The translations under genes and the position numbers were made by a program. Below are positions 196 through 55,269 of a DNA stretch of 64,000 bases, one piece after another. This DNA is from Eledone cirrhosa (Eukaryota), in NCBI GenBank assembly GCA_964016885.1, contig OZ024752.1:28396001-28460000 (forward strand). The letters run 5' to 3'. Below the pieces are notes generated by a model that saw only the letters and a program-made list of their open reading frames with translations, made no database searches and was not told the DNA's origin. Each line of letters opens with the position of its first letter. The stretch's first letter is position 1.

Positions 196-797
196 TCAAA
201 CCACTACAAAATAACAAAATATAAGACCAATATGTGAAATTTCTAGATTGTTAATAGGAAATATTCATTACTCTTGTTGAACTTTATATCAGAGAAAACT
301 ACGACCATAACAACAACAACATTAAGAACAAGAAGAATGAAGATTACCGGGATGAGGACTAAAGGTAACGAGATTGTGTAAATGTAGATAAATAAATACT
401 ATTATACGACTTAACTAGTTCACATATATGTTTTCTTTGGCCGGTATGTATAATTATGTATGTGTATTACACACGCGCACACACACATATATATATATAT
501 ATATATATATATATATATATATATATATATATATATATATATATATATATATGTAAATATGCATGTATACGTACATACATATATGTATACAGACGTACAG
601 TAGCATGCACATATATATATATATATACATATATACATACATATGCATACAGGTACACATACATATATGCACGTATCAGTTTAGCGGCGCTTATTATAAC
701 GTCGCTTTGTTCGTTTGTAAACAAACTGAACAGCCTGAATTTATGCCATACGGTGTTAAGGCAACCACGTCACCTTTTTGTTCAACACTGACACAGG

Positions 798-842
798 AAC
801 GATGTACTAGTTTCAAGCTTGTTAGCTATCATCAGCACCGTT
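798..842 (-). ncRNA. Minimal type I hammerhead ribozyme motif
   Basis: Reverse complement of the 1137-1181 motif. Confidence 0.85.
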
Positions 843-1136
843 TACCCATCTGCCAGATAGTTGAACGTTCGAAAGTATATACTTTCCTTATGAAAATTAA
901 CGGCTGAGCAGCCTAATTTGCATATTGAGTGAGTTAAATCGGGCAGGCATACCGATTTAAGTAAGTGCCATACTAAGAGTGAGAAATGAAATTTCGTTTT
1001 CATTTTGTTTCAATTTATCGTTTTCGGTATGCCTGACCGATTTAACTCACTCAATATGCAAATTAGGCTGCTCAGCCGTTAATTTTCATAAGGAAAGTAT
1101 ATACTTTCGAACGTTCAACTATCTGGCAGATGGGTA

Positions 1137-1181
1137 AACGGTGCTGATGATAGCTAACAAGCTTGAAACTAGTACATCGTT
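1137..1181 (+). ncRNA. Minimal type I hammerhead ribozyme motif
   Basis: AACGGTG-CTGATGA-t AGCT aaca AGCT t-GAAA-CTAG-TA^-CATCGTT: 7-bp stem I, 4-bp stem II, palindromic ACTAGT stem III, GUA cleavage triplet. Confidence 0.88.
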
Positions 1182-1542
1182 CCTGTGTCAGTGTTGAACA
1201 AAAAGGTGACGTGGTTGCCTTAACACCGTATGGCATAAATTCAGGCTGTTCAGTTTGTTTACAAACGAACAAAGCGACGTCATAATAAGCGCCGCTAAAC
1301 TGATACGTGCATATATGTATGTGTACCTGTATGCATATGTATGTATATATGTATATATATATATATATATGTGCATGCTACTGTACGTCTGTATACATAT
1401 ATGTATGTACGTATACATGCATACTTACATTTAAGTAAGTGCCATACTAAGAGTGAGAAATGAAATTTCGTTTTCATTTTGTTTCAATTTATATATATAT
1501 ATATATATATAGAAGTGCTTACACAACAGTTAGTTCACCATA

Positions 1543-1582
1543 CCGAGAACAATTGTTTCACCTTCGCGGATCTTCAGCTCGG
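1543..1582 (-). ncRNA. Minimal type I hammerhead ribozyme motif within a 22-bp outer stem
   Basis: Minus strand CCGAG-CTGAAGA-t CC gcgaa GG t-GAAA-CAATTG-TT^-CTCGG. 1519-1540 and 1616-1637 are perfect reverse complements. Confidence 0.8.
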
Positions 1583-51148: not shown

Positions 51149-51589
51149 TATGTATATGTGCGTATATATGTATATGTATGAACGTGTATGTACATGTGTG
51201 TATATGTACATGTGTATATATGTACATGTGTATATATGTGTGTATATGTGTGTATATATGTATATGTGTGTACGTGTATGTACATGTGTGTATATGTACA
51301 TGTATATATATGTGTGTATATGTGTTATACCTCCGTTGGTGCTGGCAAAGAGTGTTCTAGTTGGTCGAGCAACAGATCACTAAGCTCATGAATTTAACAT
51401 GTGGCTGAATATTCCTCAGATGCGTGCACCCATGACGTAGTTCTCAGGGAGATTCAATCCAACACAGTGTGTGGCAAAAATGACACTAAATTACAGATAC
51501 AACTCAGTTTACCAGTTGATTCGACTGGAGCAACAGGAAACAAAATATCTTGATCAAGGAAACAGGGCGCGGCAGAGTATTGAACTCAT

Positions 51590-52256
51590 AACTTTACGAC
51601 CCGAACAACTTTACGACCTAACAACTTTAGGACCGAACAACTTTACGACCTAACAACTTTACGAGCCGAACAACTTTACGACTGAACAACTTTAGGACCG
51701 AACAACTTTACGACCCGAACAACTTTACGAGCCGAACAACTTTACGACCGAACAAATTTAAGACCGAACAACTTTACCACCGAACAACTTTACGACCGAA
51801 CAAATTTAAGACCGAACAACTTTACTACCGAACAACTTTACGATCGAACAACTTTACGACCGAACAACTTTACGACCGAACAAATTTAAGACCGAACAAC
51901 TTTACGATCGAACAACTTTACGACCGAACAACTTTACCATCGAACAACTTTACGATCGAACAACTTTACGACCAAACAACTTTACGAGCGAACAACTTTA
52001 CGATCGAACAACTTTACGATCGAACAACTTTACGACCGAACAACTTTACGAGCGAACAAATTTAAGACCGAACAACTTTACGATCGAACAACTTTACGAC
52101 CAAACAACTTTACGAGCGAACAAATTTACGAGCGAACAAATTTAATACCGAACAACTTTACCATCGAACAACTTTACGACCGAACAACTTTACGACCGAA
52201 CAACTTTACGAGCCGAACAACTTTAGGACCGATCAACTTTACAAGCCGAACAACTT
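51590..52256. repeat. 17-19-bp minisatellite (AACAACTTTACGACCG-like) expanded inside the tRNA head of a minus-strand SINE (~51380-52275)
   Basis: The left flank TATTGAACTCATAAC (B-box complement) and right flank CTTAACCACAAAGCCACGCGTC (A-box complement) match the SINE family at 32030. Confidence 0.88.
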
Positions 52257-52821
52257 AACCACAAAGCCACGCGTCATCCCTACATACGCATACACACGGG
52301 CATATTTCAAATCCTAGTTAAACCCACAAACCTACTCACTTGTATATATAATCATATATATCTATATTTGTCATTTTGCTTAAATAATTGAAAGCTAGGC
52401 TGTATTGTTCTCTTAGTAAGATTTATATATCTATTTAATAAGCATACACCGTATCAGCTCTCTTCTTAGCGTGACCTCGATACTGCCATTTAGTCGTCAA
52501 ACATTTCCTTTTAGTTTCATTCCGGAAGAGTTGATGAGAAGATAATCACCATTTTCCGAATCCTACAGATATTAATAACGTTCTATAATTATTGAAATAC
52601 TATGTGTAAACAGCTTATTATTTCTAGTTACGTTATAAATATTGAAGTGTATTTGGATCCAGGTAAGATTATGCGAAGTCCATAACAAATGCAAGTTCAC
52701 ATTGCTGGGATTCAAGGTGCGGCATAAAGTACAGATAAATTGTGTTTTTTTAATCTTGCATACTTACATTACACAAGAACGAGAACAGTCGCATTATTTT
52801 GCTATATTTAGTATTTACAAT

Positions 52822-53228
52822 AAGGGCAGTGGATTGGCAGTATCGGTAGAGAACCGGACACCATGCTTCGCAGCATAGAGTTACGGTCCTTTACGATCTG
52901 AGTTCAAATCCCGCCGAGATTAATTTTGCCTTTCTTCCTTACGGGGTCGATAAAATAAAGCACCAGTAACGTACTGATGTCGATTTAATCGACTTTGTGC
53001 CTATACTAGAAATCATATTTAGTATTTACAATAAATAATTGTTTCTACTTTTGGCACAAGGCCGGCAATTACCCAGTACATTACTGGTACTTTATTTTAT
53101 CGACCTCGTAAAGGATGAAAGGCAAAGTTAACCTCGGCGGGATTTGAACTCTGATCGTAAAGGGACATAACTCTTTGCGTCAAAGCATGGCGTCCGACCC
53201 TCTACTGATACTGCCAATCCACCGCCCT
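52822..53228. mobile_element. Tail-to-tail SINE pair (52822-53015 +, 53037-53228 -)
   Basis: Family match. Flanking repeat TATTTAGTATTTACAATA. Confidence 0.88.
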
Positions 53229-55269
53229 TGTATTTACAATATATAATATACGTTCATGAGTGGGATATGAACTCATGCGAGTGTATAAACGACTGCCACT
53301 ATATTTCGAAGTGATGATCTGTGGGTTGCTAGAGTATAAAATATTCAGTATCGCAGACGCTGAGTTTGATATTGTTTGATGGTATGATACTGTATGGTCT
53401 CGACACTCATGAAGGAGTCGTAATGGTGCCGTAGTAGCATACAGCATTTCAAGGGCATCTTAAACCTGGTGTAGCCTATCCCTCTCTAGGTCTGAGGGCA
53501 GAGAGAATTCTTCCAAAGAAGAGGAGAGAGTGAGAGAATAAAAATGAGAAAGATATATACTTTTTTATCGACCTCAAAAGGTTTAAAGGCAAAGTTGACC
53601 TCGGTGGAGTTTGAACTCACAGATCAGAGACCATTTTATCCGACGTTCTAACAGCTCCGCTAATTTGCAACCTCATAATTTGATTGGACAACAGAAATCT
53701 ATAAATGCAGGAGTTATCCTCGCTAGTTTCACAAATACTGTGGTCTCTGTAAGCTGAAAGATCACGATGACATAGGTCTGAATTCTGTTGAAAGCACTAA
53801 GCTACAGAAAATGAGTAATTAAACTGTCTAGACCAACACTTGGTCACTTGACCCTCACAAGACCATTTACTTCAATAGGTTTAACTGATATTTATCATTA
53901 CTTTAGCTCTTTGACATTGGTTATCTTTCTGCAATGGTTTGGGGGAAATGATGCAAAGCGGGGAACAGCTCCAATGAATAAAACATTGATGCACAAAAAC
54001 TTTCATGCTGAATAAGCAACTACAATAGCTTAAGTTTTGTTTTCAAATATATATGTTGATCGTCTTAAACATATGGCATGGTTTGAGAAGCATAGCAAGC
54101 GAAATTTCACCGTCATTAGTTTTCTTTATTCGTTAAATATTGTGTTTGAGTTGATCAAAATATATTTTCCACATATCTCTGCCTCATATTCAAAACTAGA
54201 CAGCAGCATTGATTACATATCATAGTCTTACCGTCACAGAGTAGAGTAATGAATCGCTGTTTTGACAAGATACGGGAGAATTTTAGGAAGTGCCGACTCC
54301 AGCAGGACTTGAACTCAAAATATATATTGCATTATATAAAACCGTCTATAATTTCTGTACAAAATTATATATATATATATGTGTGTGTGGGTGTGTGTGT
54401 GTGTGTGTGTGTGTGTGTGTGTGTGTGTGTGTGTGTGTGTGTGTGTGTGTGTGTGTGTGTGTGTGTGTGTGTGTGTGTGTGTGTGTGTGTGTGTGTGTGT
54501 GTGTGTTCAGTAAAGATTGTTTTAGTAAAAACAGGAGCAAGCAGGAGAGAGCTCGCGACATTCGTAGTCTATAGTTACGTTGGAGAGTCAGTATAAGAAT
54601 GACATTAAGAAAGATGGTGATGATACATAAATCCTTTATTCATACTGAATAAACGATTTATGTAACATCAACATCGTTCTTAATGTTATTCTTTTATATA
54701 AATATGTGTGTGTGTGTGTGTGTGTGTGTGTGTGTGTGTGTGTGTGTGTATGTGTGTGTGTGTGTGTGTGTGTGTGTGTGTGTGTGTGTGTGTGTGTTTG
54801 TTTGTTTTGGAAGGTTTTTGAAGCGAAAGCCAATCCAAACAAAACGGTGAGTGTGTTTTATTATGAATTCTGGCAATATTATAACAATATGACTCTCGCC
54901 AAATATAACAATATATATATATATATATATATATATATATATATATATATATATATATATATATATAACGAAGGAGTTGTGGTTAGGAACCAGATGTACC
55001 ATAACGCACCAGAGTACTCAATACTTAGGGTAGCAGAGTGAATAATAGGAAAATGTATGAACCCGACGGCAGAACTCAAGCCGTTTCGGCGGCTATTTCG
55101 ACGTCTATGACCAGAAATAGCCGTCGAAACGTCTTGAGCTCTGCCGTCGGGATCATACATTTTCCTATATATATATATATATATCAAATGTATATATTGA
55201 GTTAGAAACACAAAATAGTCTCTTACAATTAAATAGCTCAAAGAAAGAGATTTTTCCGAGCCGTATATT

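Follow-up and report, generated by a model that had tools for sequence, protein, structure and literature searches.

Why do hammerhead-bearing elements in Eledone cirrhosa recur as outward-facing inverted pairs? In the window (the whole 64,000-nt stretch of contig OZ024752.1 analysed here), the first-pass annotation had placed a minus-strand copy on the left and a plus-strand copy on the right of six fold-backs, and all six sites are head-to-head inverted pairs. We conclude that each pair is a single insertion of a Penelope-like element (PLE) or of a retrozyme-like derivative, its truncated 5' ends joined and one arm tailed, and that it is probably made by twin priming. Copies of these families end at two fixed sites, A (short) and B (tail), 54-115 nt apart and used by roughly half of the copies each. 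The annotated pairs are real, but at sites 2-6 their boundaries had omitted the element's own tail, which is present on one arm only. Aligned arms are 99.3% identical over 405 nt at site 1, 96.9% over 194 nt at site 2, 96.7% over 209 nt at site 4 and 92.7% over 55 nt at site 6; the arms of sites 3 and 5 are short. The outer ends, said to point usually towards (TA)n, meet it in 9 of 12 cases, with two meeting (CA)n and one (CT)n. The arms are given below, followed by further head-to-head units that the first-pass annotation did not contain.

551..955, minus strand: left arm of site 1, from family B, a retrozyme-like unit of 474 bp; its short (A) end, at 551, abuts (TA)n at 487-550; hammerhead core 835-811.
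955..1492, plus strand: right arm of site 1 (538 nt), partially tandem, with 955-1018 repeated exactly at 1429-1492; core of the hammerhead at 1144-1168, tail at 1434-1492 and (TA)n beyond it.
26885..27078, minus strand: site 2 left arm, 3' end of PLE family C; short (A) end; minimal hammerhead 27073-27045.
27079..27083, no strand: site 2 junction insert, the right arm's 5' end copied inverted to give a perfect hairpin, as read from the sequence.
27084..27397, plus strand: right arm of site 2, from family C, with its hammerhead at 27151-27179 and a tail of 58 nt at 27340-27397.
36127..36250, minus strand: site 3 left arm, family A; tailed, (CA)n at its end; core 36243-36221, cleavage site covered by a 14-nt deletion.
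36250..36300, plus strand: site 3 right arm, family A; core 36251-36273; short end, (TA)n after it.
45325..45645, minus strand: site 4 (locus L080) left arm, family D (534-bp tandem unit); tail of about 112 nt, ending in (CT)n and then (TA)n; 5' reach less than that of its partner.
45645..46113, plus strand: right arm of site 4, also from family D; short end, without the first 68 nt or so of the tail; hammerhead-like motif with TAAC replacing GAAA.
47621..47738, minus strand: site 5 left arm, family A; tailed, core 5'-truncated.
47747..47790, plus strand: site 5 right arm, family A; only the GAAA half; short end.
54966..55099, minus strand: left arm of site 6, from PLE family E, with a GAAA half and a 79-nt tail, (TA)n after it.
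55111..55168, plus strand: right arm of site 6, also from family E, with a GAAA half and the short end, (TA)n after it.
22346..22439, minus strand: family G arm consisting of the tail alone, head-to-head with the following arm, without inverted repeat.
22440..22822, plus strand: family G partner arm; hammerhead 22721-22761; short end.
47834..47970, no strand: head-to-head unit from a relative of family E, with the left arm tailed; approximate limits.
1511..1710, no strand: additional head-to-head unit; minus arm with hammerhead 1577-1556, plus arm with a tail-like extension, (TA)n on both sides.

The family G unit (22346..22822) has (TA)n at both outer sides, and its positions 22440-22504 were taken by eye as continuous with the family UTR.

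As Rfam missed the hammerhead motifs (no match at gathering scores; of 267 weak matches, the 150 listed include no hammerhead), we searched with a descriptor and a shuffle control, which yielded 60 motifs in a 1-Mb genome sample vs 0, 1 and 1 in three shuffles. A hammerhead or its GAAA half had been described at all six sites; a complete CUGANGA..GAAA core on both arms is found at sites 1, 2 and 3 only. At sites 1 and 2 descriptor and fold identify it as type I, stems I and II included; on the left arm of site 3 the deletion has removed the cleavage site. Site 5 is without an intact core, site 6 carries GAAA halves only, and site 4 has no canonical core, the motif of family D being degenerate, with TAAC for GAAA and no stem I in 21/21 printed copies. 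A relative at locus L318 retains GAAA. Full copies of family E carry a U3-A8 core variant in 19/20 cases. Most inserted copies span the predicted self-cleavage site, and over-use of the cut site as arm start was not seen among family E 5' ends: 6/240 fall within about 7 nt of it, and 30/57 in the sample cluster 35-45 nt upstream of it, in the stem II loop. Folding back of the family E palindromes at their natural stem II was considered and rejected, the full copies carrying a different 5' strand. The ribozyme is a mark of the PLE end and not the cause of pairing, because some pairs have formed without an intact core.

The proposed Penelope origin holds: the elements are PLE 3' ends and retrozyme-like 474 and 534 bp units, mostly in (TA)n, and they have the inverted 5'-truncated copy at the 5' end and the tail at one end that characterize EN+ PLEs. 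Solo and tandem copies are common among these families, and tandem and partial-tandem copies give a pLTR-like layout. Flanks are simple repeats in almost all pairs, and the 4 pairs without such flanks show no clear target duplication. Family C encodes an ORF with a Pfam GIY-YIG match above cut-off (E 1.1e-4), which lies some 500 nt upstream of the hammerhead and shares its strand; the family's tail reads into the ORF start, and 27314-27397 at site 2 reads as codons 1-28. Family E1 has a 784-aa open frame in a 3531-bp unit, continuing through the tail, with ESM Atlas neighbours at 0.96-0.99, some in clusters with GIY-YIG or RVT_1; Pfam and PDB searches with full ORFs were blank. RT motifs were identified by eye. 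On motifs likewise read by eye, family E1 (DKT, CxCX5C linker, CxxC, CxH, no CCHH) appears to belong to the Hydra clade as defined in PMC8557442, including the (TA)n target, with RWR in place of RWK, and family C, with its CX2-5CxxC linker and CCHH, to be a Neptune/Nematis-type PLE of either clade. The two proteins are barely alignable (E 0.025). A linker motif was seen by eye in family G, and no ORF was found in family A; the GIY-YIG ORF at L148, tried as a candidate for family A, was rejected, that element being a family C relative. Families B and D are ORF-less tandem units, with arrays at L039, L041 and L108.

Head-to-head polarity itself is already in print (PMC3846280, PMC4209133, PMC8557442). 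We tallied it in 1 Mb spread evenly over the genome, as the first-pass annotation had suggested, and found same-family opposite-strand neighbours to be divergent in 42 cases and convergent in 4 (48:11 with longer references for four families), vs 6 to 8 for a control repeat. The polarity is constant inside one insertion but not beyond it, different-family neighbours being 6 divergent to 16 convergent. In four families, 100/177 sampled copies lie in head-to-head pairs, at 50 pairs per Mb, which extrapolates roughly to 150,000 in 3.0 Gb.

Could such pairs arise without a single retro-insertion, from separate insertions in one (TA)n tract, MITEs, replication-fork fold-backs or assembly artefacts? 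The families do pile up in common (TA)n tracts, as the 39 convergent neighbours illustrate, and a few loci look duplicated (L099/L100, L046/L047). However, a (TA)n run separates the arms of all 39 convergent pairs and of only 5/168 divergent ones, leaving 163/168 head-to-head pairs without it, and host flank is mirrored in only 3/135 pairs. Older arms differ through private mutations, and short-read contigs, from a run that may be the assembly's own sample, contain nine other left-to-right family C joints, the site 2 junction not being spanned. Fixed ends of the MITE kind, named at the outset as a possible refutation, are absent: ends are asymmetric and unequal, the position of the centre varies, as does length, which ranges from tens of bases up to kilobases (arms from <30 bp to several kb), and RT/GIY-YIG ORFs lie inside. 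This group of explanations is largely excluded already, and we give it very little credence.

The two 3' ends appear as two peaks in each of four families, and solo copies in the sample use both (A end 23, B end 25, unclassified 7). Where the RNA context is visible, start sites carry short AT-rich motifs at the end, running into the (TA)n flank. Within pairs the division holds almost without exception, one arm starting at A and the other at B: exactly one tail is present in 33/34 classifiable joined pairs of the evenly spaced sample (39 examined) and in 126/129 over all loci (143 examined), vs 19/34 convergent chance neighbours (39 examined; Fisher p 1.7e-9 vs joined pairs). The same holds for 22/22 complete long pairs, of which 13/13 are from family E1 and 9/9, predicted beforehand, from family C, as well as for 16/17 pairs of family D and 8/10 of family B. 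The idea that both cut strands prime from the RNA 3' region stands in amended form, with two-strand priming as the best reading and a separate start for each arm; self-complementarity of (TA)n may be what permits it, as first proposed.

These counts bear on dual priming (the term is from PMC2837659), in which two RNA molecules are used, one per subunit of a dimeric enzyme. In its favour, a PLE protein for which a dimer is predicted can extend both strands, some family C pairs have few variants in common, and sibling transcripts of one locus are here indistinguishable from one RNA. Yet if start sites were chosen independently, a single tail would be expected in half of the pairs, roughly the share seen among convergent neighbours, and not in 126/129. 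In family E1, young and numerous as it is, arms almost never differ at family-polymorphic sites: 197 variants are common to both arms, and the 4 differences at such sites correspond to 0.13 per kb between arms vs 6.5 between loci. Sharing is weaker in the older family C (3.1 vs 11.4 per kb), several pairs of which have almost no variants in common. Sibling RNAs of one locus, two units of a multimeric RNA or later gene conversion would also explain the likeness of arms. The origin of the arms from one source favours twin priming on one RNA over dual priming on two, and we regard the latter as improbable.

Joining at truncated 5' ends, with microhomology at the junction, was also correctly anticipated. 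Our junction set comprises 104 junctions, 23 of which could not be resolved and 41 of which carry inserts, many probably reflecting reference mismatch; of the 40 insert-free junctions, 36 have microhomology, with a mean of 2.0 nt vs 0.62 simulated. Among long E1 junctions, 13/15 have 1-4 nt of microhomology and 2 have hairpin inserts.

Some joints suggest fold-back copying, in which a cDNA or a self-priming antisense RNA (PMC3846280) snaps back into a hairpin and staggered endonuclease cuts leave one tail (PMC8557442). Junctions are palindromic at sites 1 and 2, L270 and L314, a non-native insert at L270 is mirrored on both arms, and arms have variants in common. In addition, near-equal 5' ends in 72/97 strict pairs, many of these being near-perfect palindromes, count against twin priming, because fold-back copying predicts them directly. 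However, the tail is on the arm with the shorter 5' reach, and missing from the longer, in 19 strict pairs (on the longer arm in 6) and in the single-unit long pairs L272, L312, L319 and L327, although the 19:6 excess is not repeated over all long pairs (11:9, 2 equal). Tail-only arms without inverted repeat occur in five clean cases with <=3 nt of body, one of them at 22346, and so are no copy of their partners. One arm at L276 shows a snap-back and then a joint to a longer partner that is absent from the snap-back, and tail ends match RT start sites reported in vitro (PMC11167929). Each of these points demands extra trimming in a fold-back model. Fold-back probably describes the joining step of some events; as a general account we think it unlikely, with the one-tail rule, common variants, microhomology and short tailed arms together favouring twin priming on one RNA.

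We infer the priming step of this twin-priming model from the observed anatomy, with its two fixed 3' ends, single tail, arms of common source, microhomology joints and (TA)n target; two strands likely start at two fixed sites of one RNA. A GIY-YIG endonuclease would cut both strands within (TA)n, one target 3' end would start its cDNA at site A and its counterpart at site B, which lies 54-115 nt further downstream, and the B-primed enzyme would stall inside the tail or displace the A-primed cDNA, so that arm overlap ranges from none to >3 kb. The two cDNA 3' ends may then join via 1-4 nt of microhomology, at times following a short snap-back hairpin, with fill-in by host repair. A solo copy would be an event whose second cDNA is too short to see. 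In vitro, the PLE protein of PMC11167929, for which a dimer is predicted, cuts both target strands and extends them, initiates at two internal positions of the RNA bounding the tail and takes uncleaved RNA as its template.

Arkhipova 2013 (PMC3846280) and Craig 2021 (PMC8557442) described PLE insertions that carry an inverted 5'-truncated copy and, optionally, a tail. The available text of these papers gives the pattern without counts, whereas the one-tail rule is here counted against a control; it places tails at 30-40 nt, vs 54-115 nt here, and proposes antisense self-priming or endonuclease resolution, whereas staggered and tail-only arms argue against simple self-copying. According to PMC8557442, the route by which PLEs form tandem and inverted structures is undefined. 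PLE remnants in Schistosoma carry dual minimal hammerheads on opposite strands, 100-700 bp apart (Cervera and de la Pena 2014, PMC4209133), and resemble ours in their opposite-strand pairs, minimal cores, extra base before stem II and U3-A8 variant, as in family E; the portions available to us hold neither a polarity count nor a junction analysis, both of which are given here. The Anolis Poseidon protein PAc (Frangieh 2024, PMC11167929) matches our pairs in two-strand cutting and extension, tail-bounding start sites, AT-rich target and uncleaved RNA. In the accessible account, however, its two start sites are not tied to the two arms of inverted insertions, as they are here, and neither a strand difference in start site nor RNA-DNA homology is reported, whereas here the start sites with visible RNA context run into (TA)n.

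In L1 twin priming, the second target strand primes in the same RNA and two inverted fragments are joined at their cDNA ends, some with microhomology (Meyer 2010, PMC2837659). The second L1 site is variable and the product carries an internal deletion, whereas here both sites are fixed and close, and the arms therefore overlap in most cases to form a long palindrome; inverted pairs hold more than half of the copies. Our literature search found no twin-priming model of PLE inversions among the papers listed, although Arkhipova 2006, Evgen'ev and Arkhipova 2005 or the original L1 twin-priming paper may contain one. Families B and D resemble non-LTR retrozymes (PMC7229834; bioRxiv 10.64898/2026.07.22.740005) as ORF-less tandem 474/534 bp units with a type I hammerhead or its remnant. 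They show the full PLE integration signature, whereas a term search of the main texts of both papers found no description of inverted insertions or tails, and the signature supports movement of these units by PLE proteins.

Together, the one-tail rule, the stagger and the single source speak for a different model from the self-priming proposed in 2013, and they make the question sharply testable in an in vitro system that already exists. We lean, if only slightly, towards the broader view that coupled twin priming (an enzyme dimer on one RNA, with strands started at A and B) is the normal mode of PLE integration, explaining tail, inverted copy and solos across distant clades, and that the same reaction moves retrozymes. 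If this is true, that reaction would have left on the order of 150,000 two-armed insertions in the genome, most of them palindromic. Pairs in such numbers could be a major origin of hairpin RNA and of fragile DNA.

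All six fold-backs described by the first-pass annotation are present in the window. In each, the left-hand copy is the one on the minus strand, and together they represent five repeat families (A to E) of the 3.0-Gb assembly. The accompanying claim of a ribozyme or its GAAA half on each arm (one half of a head-to-head pair) holds at sites 1-3 and 6 and fails at site 4; at site 5 the core is truncated:

551-1491, minus then plus strand: site 1, family B, complete hammerhead core on each arm
26887-27336, minus then plus: site 2, family C, complete core on each arm
36208-36298, minus then plus: site 3, family A, complete core on each arm
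45439-46112, minus then plus: site 4, family D, motif missing GAAA and stem I (21/21 copies printed)
47691-47781, minus then plus: site 5, family A, truncated core
55047-55168, minus then plus: site 6, family E, GAAA halves only

At gathering scores, and among the 150 of 267 weaker matches listed, an Rfam search left the hammerhead motifs of these families undetected; a hammerhead descriptor found 60 motifs in a 1 Mb sample vs. 0-1 in shuffled sequence. Of 20 full copies of the family E hammerhead (repeat loci L240-L269, L156, and L279 of the same assembly), 19 have a U3-A8 core; stem II is long and stem III paired, so these ribozymes might cleave as monomers. Hammerhead motifs of other families and one 62-bp palindrome occur at 22930-22957, 25270-25331, 48094-48117, 48791-48813, and 49111-49152, and the hammerheads at 22721 (+) and 22957 (-) oppose each other across a single (TA)n tract. 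At 55749-57659, a 312-bp unit containing hammerhead cores (four found intact) is repeated 6.1 times in an array typical of retrozymes (for retrozymes, see PMC7229834 and preprint bioRxiv 10.64898/2026.07.22.740005); a head-to-head pair of this family occurs at L179. The stretches 2632-14407 and 14870-17162 between them hold fragments of a LINE with an RVT_1 match, a 2.4-kb segment in two copies (85% identity), and a 45-bp minisatellite (51 copies) matching one end of the SINE-like repeat that serves below as a control.

Family C encodes a GIY-YIG domain ~500 nt upstream of its hammerhead, with both on one strand, and its tail forms the beginning of the ORF. E1, a young subfamily of E, has a 3531-bp unit and a 784-aa open frame. 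Judged by eye rather than from a tree, the family C protein carries Neptune/Nematis-type motifs and the E1 frame the Hydra-clade motifs given in PMC8557442; the two proteins are barely alignable. Since hammerhead and ORF share a strand, the hammerhead strand is the sense strand in C and E, where both 3' ends thus point outwards as claimed; A, B, and D are assumed to be alike in this. Neither B nor D has an ORF: both are made up of tandem units, 474 bp long in B and 534 bp in D. The asymmetric ends and widely varying lengths, as opposed to the fixed ends of MITEs, rule out a MITE identity.

A protein search returned 42,142 E1 candidates. Family C ORFs contain long asparagine-rich tracts (L295:3626-6802, L148), likewise described for Adineta Penelopes in PMC3846280. 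At L278-L279 (G000:C1:437,198,000-437,215,000), ~4.5 near-identical tandem E1 units (3531 bp) with a short inverted tailed arm imply that the RNA template was multimeric or circular. A decayed ORF resembling those of Penelope-like elements (PLEs) lies at 43050-45230 (+), with RT-like and GIY-YIG-like motifs judged by eye and no Pfam match; it opposes a 77% identical 3' end at 46128-46456 (-), with site 4 between them.

We tallied opposite-strand neighbours within 1 kb in a genome sample of 100 fragments, each 10 kb long; 7 adjoin the window and 93 were placed at round-number positions of large contigs. Far from equal frequencies, same-family neighbours were divergent in 42 cases and convergent in 4 (48 vs. 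11 with longer references for four families), different-family neighbours in 6 and 16, and a SINE-like control repeat in 6 and 8. Among the 150 best protein matches of two families, match tables gave close opposite-strand pairs as divergent in 8/8 and 5/5. Convergent neighbours are separate insertion events: (TA)n lies between the copies in 39/39 of them vs. 5/168 divergent pairs, and their median identity is lower (89.7%, n=23, vs. 95.7%, n=107).

Four families each show two 3' end peaks, a short end A and an end B with a tail 54-115 nt further, used about equally. Among the classifiable joined head-to-head pairs, the tail sits on exactly one arm in 33 of 34 from the genome sample (39 examined) and in 126 of 129 from all loci (143 examined; 112/115 after removing pairs found by a tail-bearing query), vs. 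19/34 convergent neighbours. The rule extends to long young E1 pairs (13/13 complete; of 18 loci, 2 were incomplete and 3 had no visible partner) and, as predicted beforehand, to long family C loci (9/9 complete pairs among 20 loci, 7 others being broken by later changes and 4 without partner). Family D gave 16/17 and family B 8/10, with look-alike duplicate loci taken once and one locus-edge case left out; L099/L100 and L046/L047, each with an identical insertion structure at two places, are probably segmental or assembly duplicates. The ends usually face (TA)n, as had been claimed: on both sides in 94 of the 126 one-tail pairs, on one side in 22, and on neither in 10.

New microsatellites are frequent at terminal tail ends (window 45265-45329; L080-L106; family A, L001-L030). 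In family D, a (CT)n run precedes (TA)n at 9/13 terminal tail ends vs. 0/22 short ends and 0/13 of the remaining junctions, most of which are internal. Of the family A tail ends, 9/24 lead into (CA)n. RT stuttering at initiation, as by telomerase, or later slippage could account for them.

Fold-back copying, in which one arm templates the other, fits many near-perfect palindromes and an insert mirrored on the arms at L270. However, a copy cannot contain sequence missing from its template, and in 19 of 97 strict pairs the arm with the tail is shorter than its partner (longer in 6, near-equal in 72); among long E1 and family C pairs it is shorter in 11, longer in 9, and equal in 2. Tail-only arms also stand against this model: in 11 listed pairs the tailed arm bears little body. 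Five of these arms are clean and consist of the tail alone, among them that of a further repeat family at 22346-22822, which has no inverted repeat whatever; in another the body measures 8 nt, and the other five cases rely on poorly matching references. Host flank is mirrored in 3/135 pairs.

Both arms derive from one source: E1 arms have 197 variants in common (22 arm comparisons, 14 loci, some arms used twice) and only 4 differences at family-polymorphic sites, 0.13 per kb vs. 6.5 between loci; the 64 private differences they keep argue against constant homogenising. Sharing is weaker in family C (3.1 polymorphic differences per kb vs. 11.4). Of 104 central junctions, 81 were resolved, and microhomology, which the first-pass annotation had proposed looking for, occurs at 36/40 insert-free ones (mean 2.0 nt vs. 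0.62 simulated); 15 long E1 junctions show 1-4 nt in 13 and a hairpin insert in 2.

Together with two RT start sites reported in vitro for PAc, the Anolis Poseidon PLE protein (PMC11167929), arm lengths, tail-only arms, common source, and junctions make twin priming the simplest reading, so that of the twin or double priming first suggested, twin priming is favoured, with the palindromes and L270 still fitting fold-back copying. One RNA would be reverse transcribed from two fixed start sites, one per arm, with snap-back assisting some of the joins (for twin and dual priming, see the definitions in PMC2837659). Sibling RNAs, in place of one RNA, would leave the same sequence.

The fold-backs are genuine, and their polarity has been published before. 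PMC3846280 describes head-to-head as the most frequent arrangement of PLE copies, with palindromes at junctions and a tail on one inverted PLE terminal repeat (pLTR), and puts forward antisense self-priming; PMC4209133 describes dual minimal hammerheads on opposite strands, 100-700 bp apart; PMC8557442 shows an inverted copy, often with a tail at only one end, and terms the mechanism undefined. No paper among those listed by our literature searches connects two start sites with two arms. New here is a one-tail rule, counted and controlled, that covers PLEs of two distant clades as well as a pair of families resembling retrozymes; it separates competing models and points to a decisive experiment.
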